Virus record (IMG/VR): IMGVR_UViG_3300030376_006642
Span: 1 to 43,329 of that record
Strand: one strand, 5' to 3'
Source: a virus
Lineage: Duplodnaviria > Caudoviricetes
Length of the DNA stretch: 43,329 bases
The notes beneath the pieces were generated by a model. The model saw nothing but the letters and a program-made list of their open reading frames with translations, did no database searches and was not told where the DNA came from. Positions within the stretch are counted from its first letter, which is position 1, and each line of letters opens with the position of its first letter. The position numbers and the translations under genes were made by a program. Shown one piece after another: positions 478 to 37,531 of the stretch.

Positions 478-504
478 TAGGTATACATCTTTTTAGGTAT
501 ACTT
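478..504. repeat. Remote copy of the replication-origin iteron
   Basis: TAGGTATACATCTTTTTAGGTATACTT matches 35654-35680 TAGGTATCAATCTTTTTCGGTATACCT at 23/27 positions, same orientation. Confidence 0.7.
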
Positions 505-844: not shown

Positions 845-1675
845 GTGGAAGTTAAATGTAGAAATATAGTATTTGACGTTTTTACAAAAGAAGAAGCCAC
901 TACTTTGGGGATTAAATACAAAAAAGACTGGCGGAATGCTGATAAAGGCGACTGGATACTTACATCGGACAATAAAGTCCTACAAGTCCTTAAAAAACGA
1001 CAAGAAAACAAGAAAGATAGAAAGAAACCTGTTGTTTATATAAGAACTGGGTATGGCGAAGTTCCTACTTACAAGTCTAATATATATGCATATAAATATA
1101 ATGACTACTGGGAAAAGGACTGGAACTATGATTTAGTGCGAGATGTAAAGCCTACTGTAATGCAAACCGAGTTTGTACGCAAACTTGTTAAGTATGGAGA
1201 ACTTGATGGGGTTGGAGAGTTTACACAAGAAAGTATTGTAAAGGCATACCAATCTATTTATAGTGATAATAACCCTACGATGGCACTAAAACGTGGTAGG
1301 GCAGTATTGAAGAAAAAAAGCGTAAGGAATCTTATGAGTGAACTAATGAAAGATAAATTTGATAATATAGGTGTTGATGATGATTATATTGCAGATACCT
1401 ACAAAGAATTTATAGAAAACACAAAAATGCCACCGAATGTTAGATTAAATGCATTAAATAGAGTAAGTACGCTTAGAGGGCATGACGATAAAAAAATAGA
1501 ACAAATAGAAGGTTCTACGTTAATTGCTATGTCTGATGGAGATAAAAAGCTACTTGCAGAAGTAAGGAAGACATTATCAGATGATGAATTAGATAAATTT
1601 ATGCAGAAAGGAGAATTTGATGGCATCACTGTTCGCAAAACTACCAGCAATCAGAGAAGTGGAAGTAAATCTTGA
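845..1675 (+). CDS. Putative terminase small subunit with N-terminal extension
   Basis: 276 aa, upstream of TerL. C-terminal half has TerS-like features (AYQSIY...GRAVLK, VRLNALNRVSTLRG). GTG start with no SD, possibly leaderless. Confidence 0.6.
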   Translation: MEVKCRNIVFDVFTKEEATTLGIKYKKDWRNADKGDWILTSDNKVLQVLKKRQENKKDRKKPVVYIRTGYGEVPTYKSNIYAYKYNDYWEKDWNYDLVRDVKPTVMQTEFVRKLVKYGELDGVGEFTQESIVKAYQSIYSDNNPTMALKRGRAVLKKKSVRNLMSELMKDKFDNIGVDDDYIADTYKEFIENTKMPPNVRLNALNRVSTLRGHDDKKIEQIEGSTLIAMSDGDKKLLAEVRKTLSDDELDKFMQKGEFDGITVRKTTSNQRSGSKS

Positions 1676-10656: not shown

Positions 10657-13600
10657 ATGCCAAAGAGAGTTTTAGATTTAAGGGACTTCTCTGGCGGTAT
10701 AAATTCCAGAATAAATAAAACCGAATTAAACGATAATGAGGTTACAAAGTCAGTTGGATTAATGTACGACGTTCCTGGTATTATAAGAGGAATGGGAGAA
10801 ACAACTGTATTAAAATACGATGAAACAAATGTAGTCCCAACGCTTTCAAGCCAAACAAATTATACAGTAGGACCAGAAAATGGATATGGATTAGGGTTTG
10901 TATCATTTGATGCCCCATCACAAATATATGTAATTCAAACTGGTGCAAATATATCAGCATTAACTATTGGAAATTATTTATCTAATAGTAATAGTTCTGA
11001 TTGGGATACAACAGTAGATAATTTTGTTCTTCAAATATTTGCAATTGATAATACAGAAGATGGCTATAATGCTAGACAAATATTTTGTTATGTAATAAAA
11101 CCTGGAAAAGATAGTACTTCATTGTTTGCAGTCGCTAAAGGTATAGAAACAAGTGATAAAACATTATATGAATCTGCAAATGCAGATGGAACTAGCCCTG
11201 ATACAAGAACCAATATTTGGTCAGATACAGGGTTTATAAATTTATTAAACACAAATAATCATCAACTTGACGCCCCTAATGATTGGCAATTCCATAAACC
11301 TAATCCTAATTTTACGCAACCGTGGAATATTACAGGAGGTGAATTAGTATTAACGACTGCTAATAATTTTGCTCCAGGATGCGCAGCATATTTAGGAACA
11401 TTTGAAACACCTGGAATTACATCTGGAAAATTATATAGACTAACTCTTGATTTTTCTGCAAATTTAACAGGAGGAGATATAATAATATCTTTAAACGGTC
11501 AAAATACAATTATATCGCCTACTGGAGCAAGTTCTATTTCAGTTGTAATAAGAGCAGGCAATGTAGAATATCCTTCTGTATTAGGAGGGCTATGGCTTAT
11601 AACTCCAGGGCTTGCAGGAATTACAGCCACAATAACAGATGTTACTTTAGTATTACATCCAGCTCAATATGGTACATTAAATGATTTAAATGCATCTACA
11701 ACATCTCAAAATGCATTAATATACACAGATTCGTATGACCAAAAAGTAAAATATTTTAGTTATGAAATGGGAGCATTTGGCGACATTTTAGTAGATTCAG
11801 CTACAGATGGGAATTTAAAAGAAGCTTTAGTGTTAAAAGATGATAATGGCTCTGTTACTTCTGAAATATCTCCTATAATATATTCTATAGAAGGAGCAAT
11901 ACGATTAATAGAAGCTAATTTTAAATCATTAAAAAAAGGAACGTCTACAGCAAGAGCTCCTTTTGAAAGCAAATATTTAACATATATAGATAGAAAATAT
12001 TTTAACGATAGAATACAGTATTTAGAATGGATAGCTGAACCAGCAGATATAGATGAACCTACTAATGGCGTTGTTAAATTTGATGGCTCTCCTTTATATA
12101 CAAATCAAATGGAAAATGGTTTTATTAATATGTTAGCATATAAAGGTGAAGCGTCTAAAAATAGAAAATTATTTAAAGAATTTATAGGTGTTGATGGATG
12201 TTATTCAGGCTTTAAAGAACAGCAGCATGAAAATCAACATTTTCCAATAGTAGCAAGTAAATGGGATATTATATCAAATTATACAGCACCAATACCGCTA
12301 TTACCTGATGGTAGCCCTGCTAAAGGGTGTGTAGGTTTTTTTAAAAGAGATTTACAGCAAGGCAACGTAACATTTCAATATCATAGTGGATTAGATGGAA
12401 CATTAGGCCCGACAGAAGCATTTGATAAATCAATTGATTTAACAGCTTCTGATAGTGGAGCTTTATTAGTAACATTGTATATAAGCCCAGATGCATTAAC
12501 AAATTTAAAAGAAGAAAATCCGTTAACAATATATATAGGAAATGCAGGAGATGCTCCAGGCGATACAGGTGCAGAATTTGACGAAACATTTGATGGTAAT
12601 TTTGATGACGGAGCTAATGTAGCATTTGCATATTATGATTATCCTAAAAGCGAATTAGATTCTGGATGGACAACATTTAAATTAGAAAAAAATAAATATA
12701 GTGGTTTAAGGGGTGCATATGATGCTAAAAACATTAAAGATGTATTTATAAAATTTAGACAAAAAGAATTCTCAGACCATTATTATGCAGGAGAAGGAGT
12801 TAGTGTAAATGAACAATATTTATTTTATTTTGTAGGGTCAGATGGAGGAGATGAAGTAGGTAAAACAGTTAATGATAATGATTATGACAATTCAAGCTAT
12901 ATAGATTTAGTTTATCATTTAGGAAGTACCAATAATGATACTCAACCTTCAGTTAGACGAATATTTCTAAAAAAAGGCGACCATTATGATATAAAATCAA
13001 TAACTTATCCAGATGGAAATTTTACAGGAAGCGGTAATGCAAGATGGTATCGAAATAAAGCTGTTATTGATGTAGAATCTCATGATGATGCTGAAATTAC
13101 TGTGTCACAACATTTTCAGCAAGGTGATTTAGTATTAATTAAAAGAAATAGCGATAGTGGCTCAAGTTATACAACTTATACTGAAAATAAAGAAGGTTAT
13201 TTTTGCGCTTGTGTAGATTCTGTAGATGATGCTAATGATACTATAACTGTAACATTGCCTTCTCAAAAACAAGAAATACTTGGAACTAAAATAAGTGATA
13301 GTTGGTTTGATATAACTGATTTTAATACAAACGCAACATTATATAAACATCCTAATTTGCCAGAAAATGACAATCAACGTGCATCAATTGCTTTTTCTTC
13401 AAATAATGAAGGGAATGAAACACCAAGTGGAGTAATAACAGGAATAGGAGATAATTTTACGTCAACTCCTGTTCCATTTGCAATATCTGCAATAGAGTAC
13501 GAAAAAGCTGTAGAAGGAAATTGGAATGGTAAATACACATTTTATTATAGTTTTGTTTATGATGATAAACAAGAATCTAAAATGTATGAATTTAAATCAT

Positions 13601-15819
13601 TATCAAATAAATTTGGAGATGGGACATTACCTTCTAATGAAATAGAATTAAAAGAAGAAATGTTATATTTATCTTTTTGTTTAAAAGAAGCTAGTATAAC
13701 AGGTGGATGGAATCATTCAACTGCAGGAAGAAAAAGAATAAGTGGTGCAAATATATATTATTCTAAAATATTAGAAGATGCAGAAACAGGCGATACATCA
13801 TATTATTTCTTAGGAGAATTAGATTTAAACAAAGGATTTAGATTATCAGGGACTACAAAGTACAATTTATTTCAAGAAGTAAATGCAGGTAGTTTTGAAA
13901 ATTCAAGTTTAGTATGCGCAGCAGCAGATATTAAATATGCATCTGGTACTAATGATACTATAACAAGTGTTTCTGAGTTAGATTTTTCTAAGTTTTTTAA
14001 AGTTGGAGATAGAATAAAAATTGTTACAGAAACTACTGCATTGACAGGAGCAACATTAACAAATAATGGATACGAAAGAGAAGTTACAATAAAATCAATA
14101 GCAAGTAATATATTGACTGTTAATGAAGAAATTTATGGCTCTTCAGCTACAAGTGGAGAATCTGCAACATTTACTTTTATGGGCGTTTATGACTCATTTA
14201 AAGCTATAGTATCTGCAGAACCAGTTAAATCTACAGCAACATTAACATTTACAGATGTACCAAGTAACGGTGAATTATTAACTTTATTTGATGCAGATAA
14301 TAATACAGTAGTATTTAAAATAGCTAGCAACACAACTTTAACTGGAGATGTTATTGGTGGCGGAGATACTAGTATAAACGTAGGAACAAGTGGTTTATCT
14401 ACAGCAAAAGAAATAGCTGATGCGTTAGCTAAGGTTATCAACAATGTAACTTCGTTTAATAATTCTCAAACATTACATATTACAGCAGATAGTAATCAAG
14501 CAACAGATGGTCAAATAGTATTAACTCAAGATATTGCAGGTCCAACAGGAGATAATGTTATATATCATACTATGAGTAATTTAACTGCAGATGCAGGATT
14601 TACTGGGAATACTAAGGCTCCAGTAGATTATAATAATTTAAAACCATTACAAATAGAAACACCTCCAATGGTAGAAATATTTGAAACTAGAGCATTATAT
14701 AGAAATGATGTAGAATATACAAGCGCAAGATACAAAACTCATACAATAAACAATGGTGTTGTATATGCTGGGAATGTTATGCAAGGTAATGTTATTTATA
14801 CAGACAGAATATTAAAATCATTACCATCTAGACCTGATTTATTTCCTAGTGATAATTTTATAGAAGCAGCAGTTAATGATGGAGATGAAATTATAGTATT
14901 AGAATCTTTTAATGACAGAATATTACAATTTAAAAGAGGAAGTTTAAGTATTATAAATGTAGCGGGTTCAATAGAATACTTAGAAAATACATACCAACAT
15001 TTAGGTGTTAAAAGTACAATGGCAGTATGCAAAACAGATAAAGGTGTAATATTTGCAAACAAAAGTGGTGTATATATATTTATAGGCGAAGGTGAACCTA
15101 CTAAACTAACTAGCAAATTATCTGATTCAGATTGGAAAACTTTTGTTAATGGAGAATCTGAAAAATTAGCACTTTTATATGTCCCTTTAAAAGACCAGAT
15201 TATGGTAGGTCATACAACTACAGATGATGCTTATATTTTAGATTTACGAACTCAATCTATATCTTTTGGAGAAGACGTATTTTTATTTGGAAGCCAAACA
15301 ACAAATATTGTTAATGATACAGTAAATAACCAACCTGTATATCTTTCAAAAGATGGAAGTAATAATTTGAAATTTTATACAATGTATAACAGTGAAGATG
15401 ATACATATTTAGCAAGTATAACTCATGGAACTTCTACAGTAGCTACTTCAAGTGACATACAATCTTCAACAGGAATTGGAGTGGAATTTAAACATTTAGA
15501 TTTTGGAGCTCCAGAAGTAAGAAAAAAAATACATAGCATTACAATTACTTCTAAAGACTCTGATGGTGATTTAAAATTACAATATTCATCTAATATGGGT
15601 AATTCTTGGGTAGATGTAGGAGCTGACGAAGCTGCTTCTACAATAACAAATTACGATGGTAATAGAGGAAGTTATTCTAGACAAAGATTTAAAGTAAGTA
15701 TTAATAATATATATACATTAGGGCTTAGAATAGTTCCTACTACTGGTACTTCAAGCATAGAAGCAGATTTTGGTATTCAAGATATATCCATAGTATATAG
15801 AATGAAAAATGTCAAATAG
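10657..15819 (+). CDS. Tail nozzle/stabilisation protein (P22 gp10/T7 gp12-like) with accessory domains
   Basis: 1720 aa. N-terminal DFSGGIN; C-terminal beta-propeller repeats, HLDFGAPEVRKKI and ISIVYR terminus typical of podovirus nozzles. Confidence 0.7.
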   Translation: MPKRVLDLRDFSGGINSRINKTELNDNEVTKSVGLMYDVPGIIRGMGETTVLKYDETNVVPTLSSQTNYTVGPENGYGLGFVSFDAPSQIYVIQTGANISALTIGNYLSNSNSSDWDTTVDNFVLQIFAIDNTEDGYNARQIFCYVIKPGKDSTSLFAVAKGIETSDKTLYESANADGTSPDTRTNIWSDTGFINLLNTNNHQLDAPNDWQFHKPNPNFTQPWNITGGELVLTTANNFAPGCAAYLGTFETPGITSGKLYRLTLDFSANLTGGDIIISLNGQNTIISPTGASSISVVIRAGNVEYPSVLGGLWLITPGLAGITATITDVTLVLHPAQYGTLNDLNASTTSQNALIYTDSYDQKVKYFSYEMGAFGDILVDSATDGNLKEALVLKDDNGSVTSEISPIIYSIEGAIRLIEANFKSLKKGTSTARAPFESKYLTYIDRKYFNDRIQYLEWIAEPADIDEPTNGVVKFDGSPLYTNQMENGFINMLAYKGEASKNRKLFKEFIGVDGCYSGFKEQQHENQHFPIVASKWDIISNYTAPIPLLPDGSPAKGCVGFFKRDLQQGNVTFQYHSGLDGTLGPTEAFDKSIDLTASDSGALLVTLYISPDALTNLKEENPLTIYIGNAGDAPGDTGAEFDETFDGNFDDGANVAFAYYDYPKSELDSGWTTFKLEKNKYSGLRGAYDAKNIKDVFIKFRQKEFSDHYYAGEGVSVNEQYLFYFVGSDGGDEVGKTVNDNDYDNSSYIDLVYHLGSTNNDTQPSVRRIFLKKGDHYDIKSITYPDGNFTGSGNARWYRNKAVIDVESHDDAEITVSQHFQQGDLVLIKRNSDSGSSYTTYTENKEGYFCACVDSVDDANDTITVTLPSQKQEILGTKISDSWFDITDFNTNATLYKHPNLPENDNQRASIAFSSNNEGNETPSGVITGIGDNFTSTPVPFAISAIEYEKAVEGNWNGKYTFYYSFVYDDKQESKMYEFKSLSNKFGDGTLPSNEIELKEEMLYLSFCLKEASITGGWNHSTAGRKRISGANIYYSKILEDAETGDTSYYFLGELDLNKGFRLSGTTKYNLFQEVNAGSFENSSLVCAAADIKYASGTNDTITSVSELDFSKFFKVGDRIKIVTETTALTGATLTNNGYEREVTIKSIASNILTVNEEIYGSSATSGESATFTFMGVYDSFKAIVSAEPVKSTATLTFTDVPSNGELLTLFDADNNTVVFKIASNTTLTGDVIGGGDTSINVGTSGLSTAKEIADALAKVINNVTSFNNSQTLHITADSNQATDGQIVLTQDIAGPTGDNVIYHTMSNLTADAGFTGNTKAPVDYNNLKPLQIETPPMVEIFETRALYRNDVEYTSARYKTHTINNGVVYAGNVMQGNVIYTDRILKSLPSRPDLFPSDNFIEAAVNDGDEIIVLESFNDRILQFKRGSLSIINVAGSIEYLENTYQHLGVKSTMAVCKTDKGVIFANKSGVYIFIGEGEPTKLTSKLSDSDWKTFVNGESEKLALLYVPLKDQIMVGHTTTDDAYILDLRTQSISFGEDVFLFGSQTTNIVNDTVNNQPVYLSKDGSNNLKFYTMYNSEDDTYLASITHGTSTVATSSDIQSSTGIGVEFKHLDFGAPEVRKKIHSITITSKDSDGDLKLQYSSNMGNSWVDVGADEAASTITNYDGNRGSYSRQRFKVSINNIYTLGLRIVPTTGTSSIEADFGIQDISIVYRMKNVK

Positions 15820-18652
15820 AAAAATAGATAATTTAAGAGAACCTTCTAACCTCCAATTAAAAGTAAAAACTGGATACCCTACTGCTATTGACGCAAAAGA
15901 AGGCGTAGTTACACTTCGATATATTCCAGGAACAGGTTTAGCATTATTTGCATATTATGCTAATAAATGGAGTATGACAAAGCTATCAAATATGAATGCT
16001 AAAGATGAAAGCATTGTTGAAAATTTAAAAGTTAAAAACTTAGAAATAGATAAAAGTGCAAAGTTTAATGCATCGTCTGTTAATATATCAGAAAAAAATA
16101 TACCTTCTATAAGAAAATGGGATAAATCATATAATGATATAAGAAGTGGAGAAATAGAAGCAAACTTTAAAAAAACTAAAGTTAAAGAAGATTTGCAGAT
16201 TGGCCCTGATAATAATAAAATATTATTAAAAAATAATAGTGGTGCGTTAAATATTAGAAATGCTGCTGACGATGGAGATATAACATTAGCAACTACATAC
16301 ACTGCAGCTAAATGTACTGATGCTACTGCTAATAATACAGCAACTGCACTTAAAACTTTAGTAGGAGAATCACCTGTTGCTATAGATATAGCAAATGATA
16401 GTATTATATTTGGAGATGCCGATGGAGTAAGTGCAGGTCAACCTGAAAGAACTGTATTTAAATCTATTAGTACGGCTATGGCAGGAGATGGTCTAGCAGC
16501 AGATGGCACAACAGGAGTGTTGTCTGTCGGAGTAGATAATTCTACAGTAGAAATTAATAGTGATGCACTTAGAGTAAAAGCTGGTGCTATTACAACAAGT
16601 CAAATTGCCGCAGGTACTTTAGTTGCTGAGTTAGAAGGAATTGGTAGTAATGACAATGATACTACGATACCTACATCAGCAGCTGTAAAAGATTATGTAG
16701 ATAATAATGCAGGCGGTACGTTTAGTGGAAGTATTACTACAAATCAAATAGCTCATGGCTCTGGAACTAATGCTTTGCAAGGAACTGATAATTTTTCATT
16801 TTCAAATGGTCTTTTATCAATGACGACTTCAGATGCCTCATCTCAAAAACCTCGTTTAACATTTTTAAATTCTAATGCAAACGATGAATCTGGTACAATA
16901 TATTTTAATAACACCTCTGCATCTCCTGCTATGAATGATAAATTAATGCAAATATATATTACTGGAAAAAATAATGCAGGAACTCCAGAAGATATTACAT
17001 ATGCAACTATTAAAGCAAATATTTTAAGTTTTGCAGATGATAATGAAGCAAGTTATATGGATTTTAAAACTATGGCAAACGGCAGTGAAAGAACTTTATT
17101 AAGTTTATATGGTGACGCTATGCTTGTACAAGGTACTGATGGAAATACAGCATTTAAAATAAAAAGTTCTGCAGATGCAGGTGATTTTTTTGGAGTTACT
17201 GTTGATACTCATGGAGCTACAACTATAGCAACTGAGGATGATGATGCTATAGCTGCTAATCTTACATTAGATATAGATGGAGACATAGAGCTTAATGCAG
17301 ATGGTGGAGATATAGTATTTAAAGATGATACTGCTTCATTAGCTACAATAAATAGTGATGGATTAACTATAAATAATATATCAAGTGGTGATGGTTCTGG
17401 AGAAAACTTTTTAGTTGAAGAAAGTGGAGTTGTTAAAAAAAGAACAGCTGCTCAAACATTAAATGATATAGGGGCAATGCCTGATTCTGGAGATATTACT
17501 ATAGCAGGAACATTATCTATAACTGATACTGGGAGTCCTCCTCTAAAAGTAGCTTATGATGCAAACCATTTTGCTACATTTGATATGGATACTAATGGAG
17601 TATTAGAAATTGAATGCACAGATGGTGGTTCAGCAGAGTCTAAATTACAATTAAAAAATGGCGGTACTACTAGCGACCAATATTTAGTGTGGGGAAACAG
17701 TAGTGAAACAGCAAGAATTACATCTAATGGAGCTCAAAATTTAGTTTTAAATACAAATGAAGGAACAGATTCAGGATATATAGAATTGCAAGATGCTGCT
17801 AATGGAGACATAAGTATTATTCCTAACGGAACAGGAGATGTTATATTAGGTACTAGTACTGGAAGTGTTCAGTTTGCTACTACTACATTTTTAGATGGTA
17901 ATGGCAATGCAATGTTTGGTACAGCTGTTGCTTCAAGTGCTGTTAATAATGTGGAATTAGGTAACGCAGCTACAGGTAATGCTGCTACATTAAAAGCTAC
18001 AGGAACAGATACTAATGTACCGCTTACGGTTTCTACTAAAGGAACAGGTGCAGTAACAATTGATTCTGGTGGAGATATTGCATTAGATGCAGCAAGTGGT
18101 AATTTTACAGCTAAAAAAAGTGGTGTAGAATTTAGTGCAGCTAATAGTGCTTATGCTGGCATGGTATTAGGATATACATATATACAGCCATCATCAACCG
18201 TATTAAGTTTTGAAATACAAAATGCATTAACAGTAGAAGATGATGGTCATAAAATAACTTTTAAAACACCTCCTAGTCAAAAAGTAGAAATAGAAGTTAC
18301 CGCAATGATAAATTGTTCGTCTAGCGATACAAGAATTTCTGTTGGATTAAGTTCAGCAAATGCAACAGATGGATATAGTTCAGTAGCTGGTCAATTTGAA
18401 TATGATAGCAGTGGTATATTTTTTACTGATGATGAAGTAGATGACCACGTCAAAACATTTAAGTTTGTAGTTGAAGCAGCAAATTTAGCAGCTGTTGGTT
18501 CTGATAACACATTTTGGATAGGATTTTCAACATCTAATTCTACTAAAACAGCTTATTTAACATATGGATATAGAAGTACCCATGGCATAGCAAATCATCC
18601 ATTTATAATAAAAGCAACAGCATTACCTGCAACTATATATGATGGGTCATAA
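15809..18652 (+). CDS. Tail fibre protein
   Basis: 947 aa, G/S/T/N/D-rich; DTTIPTSAAVKDYVD; repeated DGDIELNADGGDI/GGDIALDAASG and IIPNGTGDV/STKGTGAV modules. Confidence 0.75.
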   Translation: MSNRKIDNLREPSNLQLKVKTGYPTAIDAKEGVVTLRYIPGTGLALFAYYANKWSMTKLSNMNAKDESIVENLKVKNLEIDKSAKFNASSVNISEKNIPSIRKWDKSYNDIRSGEIEANFKKTKVKEDLQIGPDNNKILLKNNSGALNIRNAADDGDITLATTYTAAKCTDATANNTATALKTLVGESPVAIDIANDSIIFGDADGVSAGQPERTVFKSISTAMAGDGLAADGTTGVLSVGVDNSTVEINSDALRVKAGAITTSQIAAGTLVAELEGIGSNDNDTTIPTSAAVKDYVDNNAGGTFSGSITTNQIAHGSGTNALQGTDNFSFSNGLLSMTTSDASSQKPRLTFLNSNANDESGTIYFNNTSASPAMNDKLMQIYITGKNNAGTPEDITYATIKANILSFADDNEASYMDFKTMANGSERTLLSLYGDAMLVQGTDGNTAFKIKSSADAGDFFGVTVDTHGATTIATEDDDAIAANLTLDIDGDIELNADGGDIVFKDDTASLATINSDGLTINNISSGDGSGENFLVEESGVVKKRTAAQTLNDIGAMPDSGDITIAGTLSITDTGSPPLKVAYDANHFATFDMDTNGVLEIECTDGGSAESKLQLKNGGTTSDQYLVWGNSSETARITSNGAQNLVLNTNEGTDSGYIELQDAANGDISIIPNGTGDVILGTSTGSVQFATTTFLDGNGNAMFGTAVASSAVNNVELGNAATGNAATLKATGTDTNVPLTVSTKGTGAVTIDSGGDIALDAASGNFTAKKSGVEFSAANSAYAGMVLGYTYIQPSSTVLSFEIQNALTVEDDGHKITFKTPPSQKVEIEVTAMINCSSSDTRISVGLSSANATDGYSSVAGQFEYDSSGIFFTDDEVDDHVKTFKFVVEAANLAAVGSDNTFWIGFSTSNSTKTAYLTYGYRSTHGIANHPFIIKATALPATIYDGS

Positions 18653-18658
18653 TTTTAA

Positions 18659-18688
18659 TTGGAAAAATAGTAATTAAAATGATATATT
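18659..18688 (+). promoter_or_regulatory. Promoter upstream of ejection-protein module
   Basis: TTGGAA-N18-TATATT. Confidence 0.5.
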
Positions 18689-18720
18689 ATATTGACAAAA
18701 AGGATTAAAAAACACAAAGT

Positions 18721-20115
18721 ATGTCAAAAAAAATCAGCGCAAAAGCATTAGCCTCATTATACCCATCTAATAGATGGAAAACTCGTAGCGTTATAAATTC
18801 TGCTGTATCAAAAGTACAACAAGCTTATGACGAAGAATTTACGCGTTTACAAAGCGTTCAGCAAACATATCAATCTATTATGAATTTTGGTAAATTAGCT
18901 ACAAATGCATATGGTAATTTTAGAGAAGCTAAACTTGCAGGATATGATGGTAATTTAAAAGATTATGCTATGCTTGATTCGCAGCAACAAGGTGCTTTTA
19001 AAGATAAATATAAAACACTTAATAATGATGTTATGGAAAAAACAAATAACGAAATGACATTAGGTGATTTATATAAGTCTACTACTAAAAAGTTTAAAAA
19101 AAAAGGTAGATTAAATAGTTTTAGTAAAAAAATAAACGAACAAGATGTAGATACTTTGTTAGAATGGCACAATAAATCAATGAAAGAAGCACCAGTTCCA
19201 ACAAAACCATTACCTGAAATTGCAGAAGATGATTTTGATAATAATGCATATGAAACATCTGCTGAGTTTATTTATCCAGGAAATTCTAATTTAGAAGATA
19301 TAGACAAATTTACTATTCTTGACAATGGTTTATTAACATCAAAATCAATAAAAAAAGAAGAAATGGAATTTGAATCATATTTTGATAATCAAGACCAAAA
19401 TGATAAGTATTGGGCAAAACATCAAGAATATGCAACAAATAGAAATTTAGATTTTAATTTTGAAAATTCAGAAGATAGACTTAAATATATGGATAGAATA
19501 TTAAATATGCCTAAAGAAGACAGGGAATTAATATTTGGCGATATGCGTAAATATGACGAGGAACAAGCAAGAAAAAAAAGCAGAGCTGAATTAGCTGAAA
19601 AAGAAGGCGTTGAATATTTTCCTGAATTTGATGAAATGTATGATGTAGTAGAAAGCACAAGAAAATCTCCAGGATTACAAGGGTTAATGCAAAGAGCTAT
19701 ACCAGGTGGTGAAACAGGATTTGAGCCTACAGCTACATTTGATTTACCTTATGGAGGAATAACTTCAGACAATCAATATATATCTAAACCTACTATGCCT
19801 TCTACAGCAGTATCAGAAGATGAAAACTTTGGGGACTTTAATACATTATATCCTAATGCAGAAATGGGAAGTATCCCATCACCTAGTAATAATATGCAAG
19901 GACCTAATGTGCCTATAGAATTTTTTAGAGAAAAATCATCTGATGTAGATTATAGATTTGCTCCAGTAGAGCGTAATTTTGAAGTTTCTAGCACATATGG
20001 AGTGCCAGAAAGAACTACAATAGACAGAGGATTAACTCCTAGTGTAGGAGGATTTATGAAACAATATCAAGATAGCATAAGAAAAAGAAAAGAATTAGAG
20101 GAGCTTATTAGGTAA
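18721..20115 (+). CDS. Putative internal virion (ejection) protein
   Basis: 464 aa, helical/low-complexity; position after tail genes. Confidence 0.5.
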   Translation: MSKKISAKALASLYPSNRWKTRSVINSAVSKVQQAYDEEFTRLQSVQQTYQSIMNFGKLATNAYGNFREAKLAGYDGNLKDYAMLDSQQQGAFKDKYKTLNNDVMEKTNNEMTLGDLYKSTTKKFKKKGRLNSFSKKINEQDVDTLLEWHNKSMKEAPVPTKPLPEIAEDDFDNNAYETSAEFIYPGNSNLEDIDKFTILDNGLLTSKSIKKEEMEFESYFDNQDQNDKYWAKHQEYATNRNLDFNFENSEDRLKYMDRILNMPKEDRELIFGDMRKYDEEQARKKSRAELAEKEGVEYFPEFDEMYDVVESTRKSPGLQGLMQRAIPGGETGFEPTATFDLPYGGITSDNQYISKPTMPSTAVSEDENFGDFNTLYPNAEMGSIPSPSNNMQGPNVPIEFFREKSSDVDYRFAPVERNFEVSSTYGVPERTTIDRGLTPSVGGFMKQYQDSIRKRKELEELIR

Positions 20116-20705
20116 TGGCACAAGGAGAATACACAAGTAACGCAGCAAGTAGTACATTCCAAGGAGCTGCTAGTGGAGCTGCTATGGGAGCAACTATAGG
20201 AACATCTTTAGGACCTTTAGGCACTGCAGGCGGTGCAATTATAGGTGGTCTCATAGGTCTAGGAAAAGGGTTAGTAGAAAACTCTGCTGCAAAAAAACGT
20301 GCTAGAAAAGTACAGAAACAAAAAGATAGATTAAAAGATGCAAGAAATAAAATAAAAGGAACTTTACAAACAATACCTGATATATTCCAAGAATCTCAAA
20401 ATATACAAGAACAGCAAATAGATAAAGAATCTCAGTCAATTGTAGAAAATTTTATAGAACAAACAGTTGGCCAAATATCAAATTTAGAAGACGTGCAAGC
20501 CAAAACAGGGCTTACTTCTTCAAATGTTACAAATCAAATTACATCAGCACGAGAAAAATCAGGAAAAACATTTCAAGACTTAACAGCCGATATTAAGGAC
20601 AAAAAAGAAATGTTAGACTATGACACGGAACGACAAAAAACTGCTGCAATACAAGGCATTTTAAGCGAAATGTACGATATTGACACAACAATAGAGAGTT
20701 TATAG
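20115..20705 (+). CDS. Ejection protein with glycine-zipper membrane segment
   Basis: GAASGAAMGATIGTSLGPLGTAGGAIIGGLIG followed by coiled coil. Confidence 0.7.
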   Translation: MAQGEYTSNAASSTFQGAASGAAMGATIGTSLGPLGTAGGAIIGGLIGLGKGLVENSAAKKRARKVQKQKDRLKDARNKIKGTLQTIPDIFQESQNIQEQQIDKESQSIVENFIEQTVGQISNLEDVQAKTGLTSSNVTNQITSAREKSGKTFQDLTADIKDKKEMLDYDTERQKTAAIQGILSEMYDIDTTIESL

Positions 20706-20706
20706 C

Positions 20707-21363
20707 ATGGCAATAGATAATGAACTAAGAAAAATACTATTAAGAGAACAAGATTTGCGTTTTGTTACTGACACTTTAGGTGAATACTTAGGAAAAAAAG
20801 ATGAAGAACGAAAGTATTATGCAGAAGAAGCGCGTCAAGAAAGATTGAAAAAAGAAGAATTAGCACAAAATTTAGAAATTGCAAAAATTAAAGAGAAAAA
20901 ACCTACAACTACATCTCAAATTACACAAGTAAATTTTATAAAAGATACAACAATAAATGGTAGAAAATATAAAACAGGAGATGTAGGTACATTTAAAATA
21001 GATAATGCAATAAATCTTCAAGATAAAGGGTTTGCAAATATTGGAAGTCTAGACAATGTTGATGATGAAGGATATAAATTACGTTTAAAAAAATATACAG
21101 ATACAAAAAAGAAAATACTTGCTGATTTAGGTATATCAGTTGAAGAAATTAGTGGTAACCCATTTTCAGTAATGACTAAATTAAGAGATACAGCAAAAAA
21201 AGCAAATTTAAATTTAAATGACGATGAAATAATTAAACAATACATATTTGCAGGCAATGAAGAAGAATACAATCAATTTAAAGGTTATGAAAAAGAATTT
21301 GGCGATTTATTTAAATCTCCTAAAGAAACAAATATAAGTAAAAAAACAGATTTTGAATGGTAA
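20707..21363 (+). CDS. Putative internal virion protein
   Basis: 218 aa, coiled-coil N-terminus, within the ejection module. Confidence 0.5.
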   Translation: MAIDNELRKILLREQDLRFVTDTLGEYLGKKDEERKYYAEEARQERLKKEELAQNLEIAKIKEKKPTTTSQITQVNFIKDTTINGRKYKTGDVGTFKIDNAINLQDKGFANIGSLDNVDDEGYKLRLKKYTDTKKKILADLGISVEEISGNPFSVMTKLRDTAKKANLNLNDDEIIKQYIFAGNEEEYNQFKGYEKEFGDLFKSPKETNISKKTDFEW

Positions 21364-21367
21364 ATAA

Positions 21368-24300
21368 ATGAGCAATGAAAACTTAAAAAAAGTTTATCAA
21401 ACTGTTTTAAAAGATTTTCCTGAGCATAAAGATACATTTGGAGATTATGAATTTTTTCAGGAAAAAATGAAAGACCCTGAAAGTGCAGAAAAATTAAGAA
21501 AATTATTACGCACAAAATATAATCGAGAAACATTAGGAGATTCAACAGAATTTTCTAATAAAGTAAAAATATCAGAAAACGATATTGAAAAATCAGAAGA
21601 AAAAATACATCAAAATATTACAAGTAAACCTGCAGAAAAAATATTAGCTGAAGAAATCTTAAACATAAATGATAATCAAACGCAAATATTAGACCAAAAC
21701 ACAACCGAACAAAATAATTTTAAAAAAATTAATCCTATACAAGAGTCTATTGAAAAAGATGTAGATAGCCAAATTGACCCTGTAATACAAGATACTATAG
21801 AACCAGAAATAGATACAAAGGTATTAGAAGACTCTAAAGTTGATACTAATCAAATTGCTTCAACTATGTTCAAGTTTGAAAATATAAATGATAGTACAGA
21901 ATTAGGAAAAACATTAATACAGTTAAAAAATTTATGGGCTTTTAAGTTTGGAGAAAGAGCAGCAAAATATGGAGCTGTAGACTCAGGAGTTAAAGCTGCA
22001 GATGGTGGGACATGGGCGCAATGGCCTGATGAAGAAAGCATGCAAGAAGGTGCAACAAAAATAATTAATGAAATGCTTAATATTGACGCTAAAGGTGATT
22101 TAAAAGAATTTATAAGTAATTATATAAATAAACCAATTGATGATGAAGAAGTTTTGTCTAGATATAATGAAATTACAAGCAAACAAAAAAAAGAAACTAA
22201 ACCCAAAACATCATTAGATATAGCATTTGAAGAAATGCAAAATAAATTTAACGAAAAAATAGATTTAAATTCAGATATTTACAAACCAGACGAACAAAAA
22301 TTTCAAGGGGAAAGTGTTGACCAATCAGCTTTTCCGCAAGAATTTGAAGATAATATTTTAGAAAAAGCAGTTAAAGATACAGCTGGAGATATTGCTGGAG
22401 CTGTTGAAATACCTTTGGCGATGGCAAGTTCTTTAGTAGGGTTTGGTGCATCGGGAGTTACTGCTATTATTGAAAGAGCTTTTTCTGGAGAAATGGACAG
22501 TGAAAATCTTGAAAATATGATGACTGAAATACGAGAAAAAATAACGTATGAGCCTAAAACAGAATCTGCGCAAGAAGGTTTAAAAATTATATCATATCCT
22601 TTTGAAAAATTTGTAGAAGCTACAGATGAATTAGGAGAAATAGTATATGATTATACAGGAAGTCCTGTATTAGCAACTGCAGCTAAAACAATATCAGAAG
22701 GGTCATTATATTTATATGGACCCTTAAAAGCAAAATACAATAAATATAAAACAGCTAATAAAAATAAAAATGCTGTAGCCATTAACGATATAGCAGACAT
22801 GAAAATGGATGCAAAATTAATGCGAGATTTAATTTATGATGACGTAATTGTTAATAATATGTCATTAGATGCGGTTATTAAAAAATATAATATTCCTAAA
22901 GACAAAAAACCTATGGCAGGTTTATTGGTTAAAGAAATAAAAGATAGTTGGGCAGCAGAATTAAAAGAAATACCATATGAAATTGTTACAGAAGGTAATG
23001 TTGTAAATGCTTTAAAACCAAAAACATCTATAAAACCAGAAAATATTAAAGAAGTTAAAATATCTACAATGTCTGAAAACAAACATGTAGTACAAGTAAC
23101 TGGAAAAAACAATAAAGCATTAGATGTAGAAATATTTCCTACATTAGAAGCCGCTAAAGCTTCAACAGAACAATTTGTAATTACAGCAACATTAAGTTCT
23201 AAATCTAATTTAAAACTTAAAAAAGATGTTAAAAAAACTAAAGAAATTGAAACTAAAGTACCAACTAAAGAAAAAGTAGTCGCTGAAACTTTGCCTGATA
23301 AGTTAGTAGTTTTAAATAATACAATATCAAGCTTACAAAAAAAGAAAGAATTGGGTCCTTTAGATGACAAAGATAAGAAAAAATTAGGTCAATTAGTTAT
23401 ATTAAGAACTAGAGTTCAAAATAAAATAAGAGAAACTAAAAAAGAATTATTAGACAAAGAAACAGAACTTAAAGAAACAACAGGATTTTTTAATAAAAAA
23501 CAAGAATCAATTGATTTTCAATTATCATCTTTAAAAGCAAAACAAAAAGAAGGAAAAATTACACCAAGTGAAAAGATTGATATACGAAGATTAGAAAAAG
23601 AAAAAAAAGATTTAATACAAGAGCAAAAAAATTACGAAATTAAAGTTAAAAAAGATGTTGTGACAAGACTATCTAAAACTAAAACAGAACTAGAAAAACA
23701 AATTAGATTTGCAAGTAGAAAAGGTTCGCAATCTACACCTTTAGAAAAAAAAGAATTAAATAGAAAAATATCAAAAGTACACAAATTAATTTCTAGATTA
23801 GAAAGTGAAAAAGGTGTGTCAATAGCATCAGAAGTATATGGTCAAACTTATTCTACTATTATTCCACCAGGATTAATACATGTATTTAAAATTATAGAAA
23901 GAAAATTAAAAGCAAGAGGAAGTAAACCATTTACAGATGCAGATATAGAGCACATAGATTATATAATAAATCAATCAGGAGATATACTTCCTAACGATTT
24001 TGATATTAATAATAAATATTATGTCCAAGAAACAGGTCATAATGCTTTTTTAACAAAAGTAAGAAAAAGAAAATTAGAAATAGCAAAATCTAACAAAGAA
24101 GTTATGAAATGGAATGAAAAAGTTCCTGATGAGTTAGATAGAGCAGATATTGGAGCTTATGTTGAAGGTATAGGAAATATATTAATAGAAAACGATACAT
24201 TTGCTGATGTTAAAAAAAGAATGACTCCTAAAAAATTAGAAGTTTATAACCAATATAAACGCTCTATTGAAAAAGCCAGAGTCGATATAAATAGTTATTT

Positions 24301-26716
24301 AAAAGAATTTGCTGGAGCAAATCAAGATTATATAGGATTTTTAGAAAATTATTTGCCACATTTTTATGTTGATGTAGATGGAAAAGGTTATCAATTTGCA
24401 ATAGATAAATTAAAGTCTAGTAAAAATGCACAAAAAAGAAAATTGCCTACATTACAAGAAGCATTAGATGCAGGTCTTTCTCCTAAAAGTCAAGACCCAG
24501 GAGTATTATATAATTTATATACAACATTAAATTGGACTATGGCAACTAATAAAATGTTTTCACATGATTTGCATAAAATTATAACTCCAGAAGGTAATAG
24601 AGCTGTAATACCAAACTATAAAAATGTTGAACATCCTTCAGATTATATATATTATAATCATCCTATATTAAATAAAGCATATTCAATGCCTAACAAAAAA
24701 GGTGAATTTAAAGAATCTCACAATGGAGTTTGGGTTCATCCTCAATTAAAAGCTCCTTTAGATATGTTAAAACAATACAACCAATTTGGAATGCTTCCTG
24801 ATGAAACAAGTAAATTTTGGGAAACGTATGACATGTTTAATAATAGTGCAAAATCACTTTCATTAAGTCTTTCTTTGTTTCATAATATAGCATTATTTGA
24901 AAGCGCACAGTCTGTGTTTATGAATAAAAATCCAATAAGAGGTGTATTTTTATTTGGAGACAAAAGTCCATTAACAAGTAAAAGACAATTTAAATTAACT
25001 CATAGAGCTGGTTTAGATTTAATAAAAGATGATAAATATTTTGAAGATATGTTAATGGCAGGTCTTGAAATTTCACATCCAAGTATGGATAATCATAAAG
25101 GAACATGGGAAAAAATTAGAGATGGTCTTTCAGATAACGTAGGATATTACACTGGAAGTAAAAAAGCAAATAATTTAATTAAAAAAGTTTTTGACAAAAC
25201 TATAATAAAACATCAAGATTTATTATGGAATCATTATCATTCTGGATTAAAAGCTTATGCATATGTTGATATAGTAGAAAAATCTAAAAATTTGTTTCCA
25301 GAATTATCATTAACTGAAATTAAAGAAATAACAGCAAATAATGTTAATAATGCATTTGGTGGGCAAGAATGGGAAAGTAAATTAATTTTAGGAAATCCAG
25401 AAATTTTAAAATGGACTAGACGAGGATTATTATCACCAGATTGGACATATAGTTCTGCAGCAATGGGTGCTGGTGGTATAAATTCAATTTATAAAAAAGC
25501 ATCAGGCGGAAAAGATTTATTAGGAGAAAAGTCTAGATTTAAAGGCGACAAATATACAAAATACCAAAGTAAGTTTTATACTAATTATTGGAAAAATATG
25601 GCACTTACATTAGGTGGAACTGCTTTATTATCACAATATGCAATATATCAAGCATTTGGAGATGAAGAGTTAGATGAACCATTAACATATAACAATGAAA
25701 AAGGTAAACGATGGGAAATTGATATTACTCCAATGTTACGACATTTTTCTAATAAAAAAAATCCTGGAAGCTGGACAACAAAACAAAGATATTATACATC
25801 TTTAGGAAAACAAGCTAAAGAATTATTTGGATATATTGATGGTATATATGGCCCTAGAAATACATTATTGAGAAAATCATCACCTATGTTTCAATTTGGA
25901 TATGAAGCATTCGTTGGTGAAACAATATCAGGGTTTTCATCAGATTGGGCAAGAGATAATGCTAATACATATGATTTAATTACATCTGCAATGGGTAGAA
26001 TTGTTAAATCTTATATGCCTTTTTCATTACAAGGTAATAGTTTAGGGTTTGCTTTGCCTATTTCTAAAGGTAAAACTCCATTTAAAGCAGAAAAAGAAAT
26101 GGCAGAAATTATGCATGCTTATGTTGACCCAGGAATAGTACAAAGAATTAAAAATAAATATACGTCAGACCAAATATCAACATTGTTTGGAGTTCAAAAA
26201 TTTGACCCGTTTGTATATGAAGAAAAGTTTACAGAATTTTTTCCAGAAATAATTAAAGCTTTAGAAAGAAATGGTTATAATTCTGAATCTGTATTAAAAA
26301 ATGTTGTTGGAGGTTTAGCTACTCAATACAATAGAGAACTTATATCTATAGGTCTAGACAAAGATGGTAATTGGCGAAATCCAGAAGAATTGAGCGAAAA
26401 AGATAAATTTTTAATAGAATATGCTGCCTACAAGTTATTTAAGTTAAATAAAAATGCATCAAATTTTGCAAAAAGTTTAAAAGGTAAATTAAAATCTGGA
26501 AAACTTCAAGGTTATGACACAGATTATTTTAATAAATATCGTCAAATATGGCAAGATGCATACAATGTTTTACCAGACCCACAGAATGACCCAGAAAAGT
26601 GGTTAAGAAATGCTTTAAAAAATGATTATTTTACTAAATATCAAAAAGATATAGTTAATCTAGCAAGATTGAAAGTTGAAGCTTCTATACTTAAAGATAA
26701 GTTGATTAATAATTAA
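21368..26716 (+). CDS. Large internal virion/DNA-ejection protein with possible muralytic domain
   Basis: 1782 aa. Residues ~170-265 (NLWAFKF...WAQWPDEESMQEG...LKEFISNY) resemble lysozyme-fold virion hydrolases; C-terminal helical region typical of podovirus ejectosome proteins. Confidence 0.65.
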   Translation: MSNENLKKVYQTVLKDFPEHKDTFGDYEFFQEKMKDPESAEKLRKLLRTKYNRETLGDSTEFSNKVKISENDIEKSEEKIHQNITSKPAEKILAEEILNINDNQTQILDQNTTEQNNFKKINPIQESIEKDVDSQIDPVIQDTIEPEIDTKVLEDSKVDTNQIASTMFKFENINDSTELGKTLIQLKNLWAFKFGERAAKYGAVDSGVKAADGGTWAQWPDEESMQEGATKIINEMLNIDAKGDLKEFISNYINKPIDDEEVLSRYNEITSKQKKETKPKTSLDIAFEEMQNKFNEKIDLNSDIYKPDEQKFQGESVDQSAFPQEFEDNILEKAVKDTAGDIAGAVEIPLAMASSLVGFGASGVTAIIERAFSGEMDSENLENMMTEIREKITYEPKTESAQEGLKIISYPFEKFVEATDELGEIVYDYTGSPVLATAAKTISEGSLYLYGPLKAKYNKYKTANKNKNAVAINDIADMKMDAKLMRDLIYDDVIVNNMSLDAVIKKYNIPKDKKPMAGLLVKEIKDSWAAELKEIPYEIVTEGNVVNALKPKTSIKPENIKEVKISTMSENKHVVQVTGKNNKALDVEIFPTLEAAKASTEQFVITATLSSKSNLKLKKDVKKTKEIETKVPTKEKVVAETLPDKLVVLNNTISSLQKKKELGPLDDKDKKKLGQLVILRTRVQNKIRETKKELLDKETELKETTGFFNKKQESIDFQLSSLKAKQKEGKITPSEKIDIRRLEKEKKDLIQEQKNYEIKVKKDVVTRLSKTKTELEKQIRFASRKGSQSTPLEKKELNRKISKVHKLISRLESEKGVSIASEVYGQTYSTIIPPGLIHVFKIIERKLKARGSKPFTDADIEHIDYIINQSGDILPNDFDINNKYYVQETGHNAFLTKVRKRKLEIAKSNKEVMKWNEKVPDELDRADIGAYVEGIGNILIENDTFADVKKRMTPKKLEVYNQYKRSIEKARVDINSYLKEFAGANQDYIGFLENYLPHFYVDVDGKGYQFAIDKLKSSKNAQKRKLPTLQEALDAGLSPKSQDPGVLYNLYTTLNWTMATNKMFSHDLHKIITPEGNRAVIPNYKNVEHPSDYIYYNHPILNKAYSMPNKKGEFKESHNGVWVHPQLKAPLDMLKQYNQFGMLPDETSKFWETYDMFNNSAKSLSLSLSLFHNIALFESAQSVFMNKNPIRGVFLFGDKSPLTSKRQFKLTHRAGLDLIKDDKYFEDMLMAGLEISHPSMDNHKGTWEKIRDGLSDNVGYYTGSKKANNLIKKVFDKTIIKHQDLLWNHYHSGLKAYAYVDIVEKSKNLFPELSLTEIKEITANNVNNAFGGQEWESKLILGNPEILKWTRRGLLSPDWTYSSAAMGAGGINSIYKKASGGKDLLGEKSRFKGDKYTKYQSKFYTNYWKNMALTLGGTALLSQYAIYQAFGDEELDEPLTYNNEKGKRWEIDITPMLRHFSNKKNPGSWTTKQRYYTSLGKQAKELFGYIDGIYGPRNTLLRKSSPMFQFGYEAFVGETISGFSSDWARDNANTYDLITSAMGRIVKSYMPFSLQGNSLGFALPISKGKTPFKAEKEMAEIMHAYVDPGIVQRIKNKYTSDQISTLFGVQKFDPFVYEEKFTEFFPEIIKALERNGYNSESVLKNVVGGLATQYNRELISIGLDKDGNWRNPEELSEKDKFLIEYAAYKLFKLNKNASNFAKSLKGKLKSGKLQGYDTDYFNKYRQIWQDAYNVLPDPQNDPEKWLRNALKNDYFTKYQKDIVNLARLKVEASILKDKLINN

Positions 26717-34242: not shown

Positions 34243-34683
34243 TCATTGTTCATTATAACTTTCCCTTAAATATAAAGCTAAAAGAATTGCATCTGATGTG
34301 TACAGCGTCACTTTTGTAGATGGAAATGCTTTAATAGCTATTTCTTTTAATTCTTTTTTTCTTATTTTTTTTTCTTTTGACAATGGTTGAAATCGTTTTT
34401 GCCACATTTTAGGTGTAATTAAATCAAACTTTATTTCAAATGCTGACAATATTCCTTGCCATTGCCCGTAATTAGCTCCAAATGTAAATGTAGATACAAC
34501 ACCTTGACCAGGAAAGCTATGTACTTTTTCCAACAAAGCAACACAACTTCCATCTAAATGTTCTTTAATTGAATGTGCCATTTCTTGCGGTGATTTAGGA
34601 CATTTAAAACATGTTAATGAATAAAACTGGTCAATAATAGCTACACCGCCATTAATTCCTGGGTCAATACCTATATATTTCAT
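34243..34683 (-). CDS. RuvC-like Holliday junction resolvase
   Basis: YIGIDPGINGG, LLEKVH, TFTFGANYG, ITPKMWQK, SDAILLA. Confidence 0.85.
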   Translation of the reverse strand: MKYIGIDPGINGGVAIIDQFYSLTCFKCPKSPQEMAHSIKEHLDGSCVALLEKVHSFPGQGVVSTFTFGANYGQWQGILSAFEIKFDLITPKMWQKRFQPLSKEKKIRKKELKEIAIKAFPSTKVTLYTSDAILLALYLRESYNEQ

Positions 34684-34979
34684 TTTTTATTTTCTGGAGT
34701 ATTACGATTCATTTTTAACAAATCTTTTTTCGACATTCCTGTCCATTTTGTTCTAACTTTTCTTTCTAAATGAGAATAATTTGCCCAAGAAGGATATTTG
34801 TCTCTATCATTATCGCAACCTTTTGACCATATTGCATGTAATAAAACCATAGGTCTATTAATATTTCTATCATCTTTACCATAATTTTCGCTCCAAGCTA
34901 CAATACAATCACTCCCATCTTCTTTAAAAAAATCCCCACATTTACTACATCTCATTTTACATCCGATTTTAACTTTCAT
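34680..34979 (-). CDS. Hypothetical Cys-containing protein
   Basis: 99 aa, CSKC plus H...C possible zinc site; coupled overlaps. Confidence 0.6.
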   Translation of the reverse strand: MKVKIGCKMRCSKCGDFFKEDGSDCIVAWSENYGKDDRNINRPMVLLHAIWSKGCDNDRDKYPSWANYSHLERKVRTKWTGMSKKDLLKMNRNTPENKK

Positions 34980-35209
34980 TTATTACTCCAGTATTTAGCT
35001 CTATAATAAGCTTTTATTTTATTGTCTTTTTTACGTTTAGGTCTTAATATTTTTTTACCATTTACATTAGTGTAAAAATCATTTTCATCCCAGTCGCATA
35101 CATAATGCGGAATAATGCCAATTGTATTAGGATTGTTGCAATTATGTATTTCTTCTATTGGTTGTAATAATATTAACAGCATAAAATAATAAGATACTAC
35201 AGTTATCAT
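34976..35209 (-). CDS. Hypothetical protein with hydrophobic N-terminus
   Basis: 77 aa, ATGA overlaps on both sides. Confidence 0.55.
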   Translation of the reverse strand: MITVVSYYFMLLILLQPIEEIHNCNNPNTIGIIPHYVCDWDENDFYTNVNGKKILRPKRKKDNKIKAYYRAKYWSNK

Positions 35210-35967
35210 TTAACAGCCTCTCTAAATTCTTCTATTGTTTTGTAATTAGTCCCCATTCTTTCGTTATATGCTTTAAGCTTTTCTAATTCTACTTCAGGAT
35301 TTTTATATTCTTCCTTAGCATCATCGTAGTTACCATCTAATACTTTGTCCATATTAGTTGGTGATAACACCCAGTCTATAGTTGCTCTCCAGTCAGAGGC
35401 CCTACCAGATAAAAAGTCGGATGATTTAACTCTTGCAAAATAGTCTTCCCAGAACGCGATATCTGGATTCTCTTTTACTCTTACCTTTAAGGACCTCAAT
35501 CTGGTGTTCCTAATAGAGTTAACCATAGGAACAGAGGAGTTCTTAAATATTTTATTCCATAATTCCATAATCTCATCAGATGCGATAGCATCTTTATTGT
35601 TATTAGTATTCTTTTTATTATTCTTTTTATTATTATGTTCAGGTTTTTCGGTATAGGTATCAATCTTTTTCGGTATACCTACATGCTTTTTTAAGTATAC
35701 CTTTCTCAGATTTCCTTTAGACCTATCAACACTTATCTGTATATACCCTCTTTTTACTAGTGATGATACCCATGATGATACAGTATTCTTATTAACATTA
35801 TATAGCTCAGAGAAGTAGCTATTAGAGGCCCAACAATACCCATGCTTACTGCATAGGGCTGTTAGTTCCGCATATAGCAACTTCTCAGATGAGCTAAGAT
35901 TAGCGTCATACCTCACATCAGAAGGTAAGATTGCATAGTACGAAGGTGTATTCATACTATTTTGCAT
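35206..35967 (-). CDS. Phage replication initiator (N-terminal winged HTH)
   Basis: YYAILPSDVRYD...EKLLYAEL...YCWASNSYF...LVKRGYI; N/K-rich linker; C-terminal FLSG...WRATIDWVL...KVLDGNY. Confidence 0.85.
   Translation of the reverse strand: MQNSMNTPSYYAILPSDVRYDANLSSSEKLLYAELTALCSKHGYCWASNSYFSELYNVNKNTVSSWVSSLVKRGYIQISVDRSKGNLRKVYLKKHVGIPKKIDTYTEKPEHNNKKNNKKNTNNNKDAIASDEIMELWNKIFKNSSVPMVNSIRNTRLRSLKVRVKENPDIAFWEDYFARVKSSDFLSGRASDWRATIDWVLSPTNMDKVLDGNYDDAKEEYKNPEVELEKLKAYNERMGTNYKTIEEFREAVK
35607..35702. repeat. Putative replication origin: three iterons at 22-bp period plus AT-rich repeats
   Basis: TTTTTCGGTATA at 35644 and 35666, TTTTTAAGTATA at 35688; adjacent TATTCTTTTTAT x2 (35607-35630); lies inside the initiator linker, as in lambda O. 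Confidence 0.75.
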
Positions 35968-36628
35968 TATTCTCCTCCACCTTCCCTTGCAAATCAGTTA
36001 TTGAAGATGATTTCTTTATAGGCTCATCAGTCATCTTTGACTTAAGGCTATTAAGAAAACCATCTGCTTGACTTGCAGTAATTGTAGGTTTTTTCAGCCA
36101 ATCTAATGCGATTTTATGTTCCTTTTGTGTCATTACAATCTTTCCTGACTCTAAAAGTCCCATGATTTCCTTTAACTGACTTTCAGATATATACTTAGTA
36201 TTAAACTTAGTTTTCATATCAGATACATATCTATTGTCATCGAATTTACCCTCAAATATATCTGAGTTAAACCCTAGTTTACTTAATGCTTTAGTTAAAG
36301 CATCAGTTGTTACTTTTTTAGCGAACTCATCGTCAGGCCTACCACCTCGTTGCATTGCAATAGATGAGTTAATTGGAAATGACCCCTCTCCATCTTTTGT
36401 TTTATACCAAAACTCAGATTGATATAGTGCCATTCCATTAGCCATTGGTGTAAATACTTCATTCTTGACACCCCAACCAATTCCTATAGGCCCAAACATC
36501 TCTGTAGCTCTTTTAACTTGTTTCTGTGCATCTATAGCTGTAAAACCACCACGTTGGTTTACATACTTAGTATGCTCTGGATTAGTCTGAGAAACTTGTT
36601 CCCATATTTTCATGTTTTTGTTTGTCAT
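35957..36628 (-). CDS. Rad52/Sak-like single-strand annealing protein
   Basis: FTAIDAQKQVKRATEMFGPIGIGWG and KKVTTDALTKALSKLGFNSDIF. Confidence 0.75.
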   Translation of the reverse strand: MTNKNMKIWEQVSQTNPEHTKYVNQRGGFTAIDAQKQVKRATEMFGPIGIGWGVKNEVFTPMANGMALYQSEFWYKTKDGEGSFPINSSIAMQRGGRPDDEFAKKVTTDALTKALSKLGFNSDIFEGKFDDNRYVSDMKTKFNTKYISESQLKEIMGLLESGKIVMTQKEHKIALDWLKKPTITASQADGFLNSLKSKMTDEPIKKSSSITDLQGKVEENNAK

Positions 36629-37416: not shown

Positions 37417-37438
37417 ATTATATATTTAGTTTTGGAAT

Positions 37439-37522
37439 GCCCAGTATCACAAAAGAGGCAAAAGGAGACGATAGAGTCTGAAACCTCTTGGCTACGCTCA
37501 CGCTAATAGCTCTCTACTGGGC
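37439..37522 (-). ncRNA. Structured intergenic element between ssb and nuclease
   Basis: GCCCAGTA/TACTGGGC closes two arms: AAGAGG/CCTCTT with AGAC/GTCT, and GCTA/TAGC capped by GC-GUGA-GC (GNRA on the minus strand). Confidence 0.6.
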
Positions 37523-37531
37523 TAGGACATA

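Follow-up and report, generated by a model that had tools for sequence, protein, structure and literature searches.

A conserved, solitary copy of the origin repeat beside a structured RNA in a marine phage genome as a putative optional control site for the replication initiator

Judging from sequence comparison, positions 481–502 (minus strand) of this marine phage genome hold a non-chance, conserved, iteron-like copy of the repeat found at the presumed replication origin. We consider it likely that the replication initiator binds this 22-mer, and we tentatively suggest, at not far short of an even chance, that it acts as an optional operator-like control site and not as a second origin. The whole stretch of DNA that was analyzed (43,329 nt, referred to as the window) is a circular phage genome of 43,250 bp, the ends of which overlap by 79 nt with one mismatch; its G+C content is 32%, and its source runs are marine metagenomes. 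Early genes run on the minus strand from 42912 to 33961, packaging and virion genes run on the plus strand from 845 on, and the site, together with a structured RNA, sits in the divergent gap that separates the two blocks. Neither an integrase nor a repressor was found among the 53 ORFs scanned. Cultured phages gave no DNA match to positions 1–850 and TerL matches of only 28%.

The initiator (253 aa; 35206–35967, minus strand) contains an N-terminal winged helix (HTH_36) and matches PHROG families of the replication initiation (E 4.8e-50), O-like (E 1e-17) and DnaD-like types; its structure model (pLDDT 62) gave weak winged-helix fold matches, and a Foldseek search with that model returned no match at E 0.001. 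Its gene belongs to a minus-strand replication-recombination module (34243–37768) that also encodes SSB, two exonuclease-annotated genes and a Holliday junction resolvase. Inside the initiator gene, three 22-bp direct repeats on the minus strand (35679–35700, 35657–35678 and 35635–35656), the presumed origin iterons, are followed by a minus-strand stretch of 80% A+T (35576–35635), the presumed unwinding element. The period of 22 is out of frame, so the repetition is at the DNA level. Both marks of a lambdoid-type intragenic origin, namely an initiator with an N-terminal HTH and in-gene repeats that precede an AT-rich stretch and vary between phages, are present here. The array at 35635–35700 is presumed to be the origin bound by the initiator, from which replication would start with the host helicase and primase. 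Across the wider family, 44 of the 87 distinct related initiator loci contain an in-gene repeat (period 22–24 in 43 of them), a count that includes a few mere AT-rich repeats; the repeats vary from phage to phage, as expected of initiator sites. Remote repeat matches were seen in 2 marginal cases among these 44 loci, which is a lower bound because the loci are partial and span 5–20 kb. One contig, L357, carries an AT-rich 16/18 copy of its own in-gene repeat 1.5 kb upstream of its initiator, possibly a second case of a remote iteron.

The preliminary description matched 478–504 with 35654–35680, within the origin array, and we reproduced this match on the same strand at 23/27; the next best match of 478–504 in the genome, at 18/27, falls within the same array. 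When 100 order-2 Markov genomes were compared with every 27-mer of the array, none reached 23/27, their best being 19–22. The unit proper is the single 22-mer at 481–502, not the 27-mer, and forms a near-palindrome, TATAC-N10-GTATA, with a central A-tract. When the genome was scanned with a matrix of the window's three origin units, this 22-mer ranked first outside the initiator gene, and its score of 18.5 bits was higher than any obtained in 30 random genomes; after symmetrization of the matrix, 1 of 30 random genomes attained its score. On a nine-unit matrix it scores 27.1 bits, compared with 19.3–29.3 for the matrix's own units. It combines features of origin units 1 and 2 and is a copy of neither. 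Round the circle, 8,029 bp separate it from the array, in agreement with the earlier figure of about 8 kb. The site is solitary, as a second half-site at 467 lies within the null (20/30 random genomes).

Comparison with relatives revealed an island of conservation amid drifting flanks. Between the window and the contigs L003 and L004, 21 of 22 site positions are identical, compared with 9/20 and 8/20 in the left flank and 13/22 in the right flank (40–59%), 112/175 and 113/177 at TerL four-fold sites (64%), and 89% for the presumed small terminase. Between L003 and L004 themselves, the site is identical (22/22) and the left flank agrees at only 7/16; sequence conservation ends at the palindrome edge. 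A further contig, L239, bears initiator, RNA and site together, and its site scores 19.0 bits beside own units of 17.5–23.3. Because the origin repeats of L003, L004 and L239 are nearly the same as those of the window, these cases demonstrate conservation, not co-variation. L238, which groups with the clade of genome G001 (100/100), is a divergent locus with a variant 22-mer at the homologous place, the right arm of which matches unit 2 of that clade exactly. The variant, which leans towards the repeats of its clade, scores 17.1 bits on the G001-clade matrix and 14.7 on the window-clade matrix (p 0.001 and 0.002), below the origin units of its own clade (19.7–30.9). With the initiator off this 1,580-bp contig and the score under the clade's origin units, co-variation is represented by one indirect case; the initiators of L224, L236 and L222 are likewise unlinked to these loci.

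The site is missing in most RNA-bearing relatives. Of 16 RNA 3′ flanks, 5 that belong to the window clade carry it (one of these is identical to the window), L238 carries the variant, and the other 10, which include two near-identical pairs, have none (p 0.06 or more). L171 was left out of the 16; its true flank was checked crudely, with a best match of 16/22 to its replication gene, in which no clear in-gene repeats were seen. One arm of the palindrome, AGTATA/TATACT, is kept in 7 of 12 RNA homologues and the hexamer is absent from 5; four arm-bearing homologues (L035, L037, L223 and L176) lack the full site. The simplest history would be an older site retained in two lineages and eroded elsewhere, with the TATACT arm often surviving.

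These distributions also bear on a reading in which the 22-mer is no initiator site at all and instead forms a hairpin at the RNA 3′ end, serves some other dimeric protein, or arose by a recent copying of origin sequence onto the TATACT element. We consider this reading unlikely, although it keeps an appreciable share of the probability: GTATAC is self-complementary, which lets the unit form a short hairpin in RNA; one arm turns up in RNA homologues irrespective of their iterons, the unrelated L176 included; and the 22-mer is missing from 10 of the tested flanks. However, a hairpin would have no need of the conserved loop, which corresponds to the central A-tract in the origin units. The stop of conservation at the palindrome edge and the mixing of units 1 and 2, in place of a copy of one, argue against it as well.

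Regulation by the initiator of something at the site, offered in the preliminary description as an alternative, still appears to be the best reading, and we propose the following for an optional operator-like control site. An initiator dimer on 481–502 would cover the plus-strand hexamer TATACT (498–503), which resembles a −10 hexamer, and the dimer would sit just past the RNA 3′ end. It would therefore curb plus-strand transcription in the direction of the packaging genes and stop read-through of the RNA into the pac-like region, for as long as the initiator is abundant. This transcriptional role is, in our estimate, somewhat likelier to be wrong than right. The promoter consensus scan did not list 498–503, and the hexamer has no −35 partner. 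The presence of the TATACT arm in homologues without the full site is what one would see if an operator had been superimposed on an older element. Repression by an initiator through operator-type sites is described for RctB of Vibrio cholerae in the available part of PMC6090056. If the initiator does bind 481–502, the window would provide a one-site, gain-and-loss case in which a phage initiator works at the packaging end of the genome, a long way from its origin, and would offer an inexpensive test of the link between replication and late transcription or packaging; among phages, in the portions of the sources available, we found remote initiator action described only for SPP1.

The first idea about this region was different: the RNA and the initiator site might together make up a second origin, primed by the RNA in place of a primase. 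The RNA 3′ end does point towards 481–502, the absence of a recognizable primase or helicase held up (zero DnaB_C or Toprim_2 matches across the whole genome), and structured pre-primer RNAs exist in ColE1 and MRB plasmids (available part of PMC6380287). Nevertheless, the relatives argue strongly against it. The preliminary description named beforehand, as the observation that would speak against the idea, relatives that keep the RNA with no site matching their own iterons, and G001 (99% complete) and G002 (100%) are such relatives. Away from the origin, the best match to each genome's own repeats was equalled by 24–30 of 30 random genomes, with less power in the scan of G002 because its repeats are weak. 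Conversely, G006 and G007 have a like initiator and no primase or helicase match, RNA or remote site. In L171, the RNA adjoins a primase-helicase gene (E 1e-70) of the same 62% G+C fragment, and in L176 it occurs in a phage with a different terminase; G003 was left out as its record ends before the RNA region. Taken together, these patterns indicate that the RNA, the remote site and the lack of a primase are separable.

Comparison with known RNA primers points in the same direction. The RNA II of ColE1 and the MRB pre-primer resemble the RNA of the window in being long, structured and ending by a replication-related site. However, as the available text of PMC6380287 has it, ColE1-type priming is an alternative to a Rep protein, the RNA and origin are inseparable, and control is by the antisense RNA I, whereas the RNA and the site of the window occur apart; an RNA that always accompanies the origin site, or that replaces primase and Rep, was not what we found. 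Additionally, no AT-rich unwinding stretch lies beside 481–502, where the A+T content past the site is 53% compared with 80% past the origin array. The lambda origin (pO, oop RNA) is closer in that its iterons lie within the gene for the initiator, it relies on DnaB and DnaG of the host, and a phage RNA was once the primer candidate, a proposal later dropped because DnaG suffices (PMC3985674, in the part available). In contrast with oop, a short antisense RNA near ori, the RNA of the window is about 280 nt long, pseudoknotted, 8 kb from the origin and overlaps no gene. We therefore regard the RNA-primed origin as highly improbable, and this negative result removes a tempting explanation.

The preliminary description knew of no phage system with such an arrangement; oriR of SPP1 is a precedent. 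According to the available portions of PMC6316719 and PMC3485210, SPP1 gp38 (G38P) has one binding region, oriL, within its own gene and another, the distant intergenic oriR, 12–13 kb away, where a fork block is proposed as the trigger of the theta-to-sigma switch. By analogy, an initiator bound at 481–502 might stall the fork by the packaging start, and the exonucleases, SSB and resolvase might restart it as concatemer synthesis. We give this reading a small share of the probability. Both genomes have repeats in the initiator gene and an intergenic site many kilobases off, exonuclease, SSB and resolvase genes adjoin the window's initiator as they lie near that of SPP1, and roughly 100 bp separate 481–502 from the pac-like element. 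However, oriR consists of several repeats plus an unwinding element (available part of PMC6316719), and SPP1 has its own helicase. The window has one unit with no AT-rich stretch, no helicase match, an adjoining structured RNA and a patchy presence, with G001, G002, G006 and G007 all devoid of a remote site.

P1 incA is a control site of an iteron replicon. Such control sites lie beside the origin or the rep promoter, whereas the site of the window is single and lies beside phage packaging genes. In an analogous manner, the extra iteron could damp origin firing by binding or bridging the initiator, and we consider this improbable. For RctB, titration, handcuffing and autorepression are described, and the ori2-inc, 39-mer and 29-mer sites of V. 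cholerae lie, like 481–502, outside the minimal origin, where they titrate, handcuff or repress (PMC6090056, as far as available); similarly, additional lambda iterons present in trans are competitors for O (available part of PMC3985674). Yet one site adds little against three, and its fixed position at the RNA end is left unexplained. The lack of an integrase or a repressor among the scanned ORFs also makes tight copy control seem less needed.

The structured RNA beside the site, which we call ncRNA A, is a more novel object than the site itself and the larger prize. It is predicted on the minus strand at 505–783 (about 280 nt, ends approximate) and covaries strongly as a whole; it comprises a first helix, helix 1 (780–747), with a T-loop-like motif, and a terminal hairpin (584–543). 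Four crossing pseudoknot helices are covarying or invariant, and a fifth of 5 bp is likely. Two loose viral patterns gave 55 and 90 stretches, mostly chance loci, which were then filtered by profile, and the profile search recovered ncRNA A in 16 distinct sequences; a pattern scan of genome contigs gave 53 loci, 0 of which contained ncRNA A at E < 0.9. In 12 homologues, 94.1% of 643 cells pair and 25 of 54 pairs are changed on both sides, counts that lean towards the structure because it was drawn from the same 12 homologues; 0 of 500 shuffles paired as well, and slid controls reached 38–51%. The covarying pseudoknots persist across 36% to 62% G+C. A plus-strand RNA was ruled out by 71 G-U versus 11 A-C cells and by energies of −30.5 versus −15.0. 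In the single RNA run (n=1, share 0.05), no contig covered 286–1368, and the contigs show neither ends nor strand.

Rfam gave no match in positions 1–900 and one elsewhere (12832–12910, E 0.31), and ARAGORN predicted 0 tRNA or tmRNA genes; identities as a tmRNA, a group I or II intron or RNase P were dropped accordingly. A promoter-like TTGACA-17-GATACT at 787–759 was also rejected, since it falls within helix 1 and is not conserved in relatives. We found no description of ncRNA A in Rfam 15, in the literature or in the available part of the supplementary files of PMC10690425, the remainder of which could hold one; bioRxiv 10.64898/2026.09.22.753630, in its available part, concerns other RNAs. 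The earlier claim that the site abuts the 3′ pseudoknot strand holds only for a long helix that reaches 503 and exists in the window alone, with 82 of 168 cells paired across the 12 homologues. It fails for the conserved 5-bp core (56/60 cells), the end of which, near 517, is separated from the site by about 15 nt.

Within the RNA, two direct repeat copies on the minus strand, R1 (588–598) and R2 (511–521, at the RNA 3′ end), flank the last hairpin and covary across homologues. In each homologue, 8–11 of 12 bases are alike at a period of 76–92 nt, and the sequence diverges between distant lineages while the copies stay alike (L004, L035, L040, L043, L171 and L176). Both copies start with CCAR-like bases, for which a conserved UUGG in the first loop is a potential pairing partner. 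No partner complementary to R1/R2 was found in the RNAs' own records beyond scattered 10/11 matches. A nearly invariant helix, GGGGUU/GGCUCC (725–720/602–597, minus strand), has an invariant G-U at pair 3; it presumably resembles an alanine acceptor stem, and ARAGORN classed it as neither tRNA nor tmRNA.

The DRT2 ncRNA, as the available part of PMC12039810 describes it, is likewise pseudoknotted and has a template segment flanked by a repeated motif, ACA. In contrast, we found no reverse transcriptase (RVT_1) match in 5 records (two of them fragments), and the repeat period of ncRNA A is divisible by three in no more than 3 of 12 homologues. A DRT2-type template RNA was rejected on these grounds. 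We speculate, as a long shot, that ncRNA A represents a new class of phage catalytic or template RNA in which the CCAR bases of R1 and R2 dock on UUGG and the hairpin between them is excised, circularized or recopied; in this lineage, an initiator at 481–502 would then gate the RNA 3′ end and tie the reaction to a replication-packaging switch.

ncRNA A was found in three unrelated phage types, and its presence in two unrelated fragments, L171 and L176, suggests that it moves as a unit. In L171 (6850–7140, minus strand) it lies beyond a repressor gene, and in L176 (890–1175, minus strand) it is divergent from an SSB-containing operon.

Other elements of the divergent gap occur independently of the RNA. 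A G+C-rich inverted repeat at 414–455, the arms of which change together, is retained, with altered sequence, in RNA-bearing and RNA-free relatives alike. Ahead of the packaging genes, the conserved plus-strand element TCAACG...G-run...TATATA...T-run (308–380), termed pac-like, is present in G001, G002, G006 and G007, with or without the RNA. The label 'pac' is presumed by position only, as is that of the small terminase (845–1675, plus strand), which is named for its place ahead of TerL and has no PHROG or Pfam match. On the plus strand at 10657–26716, three long ORFs (1720, 947 and 1782 aa) with no PHROG match and no Pfam match over the cut-off perhaps encode tail or injected proteins. In the window, no genes occupy 42912–43250 and 1–230, which separate the first early gene from the pac-like element and show lower conservation than the RNA. 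Stretches without genes, likewise on the early side of this element, are also found in L052 (8130–8630, G+C-rich), L042 (7930–8620) and L058 (2010–2400), and may hold other structured RNAs; the ncRNA A model gave no match in the L042 and L052 records. A more distant relative, G004 (L050:6029–10001), has neither an initiator of the window type nor the RNA, and carries about 3.2 kb between the presumed small terminase and TerL.
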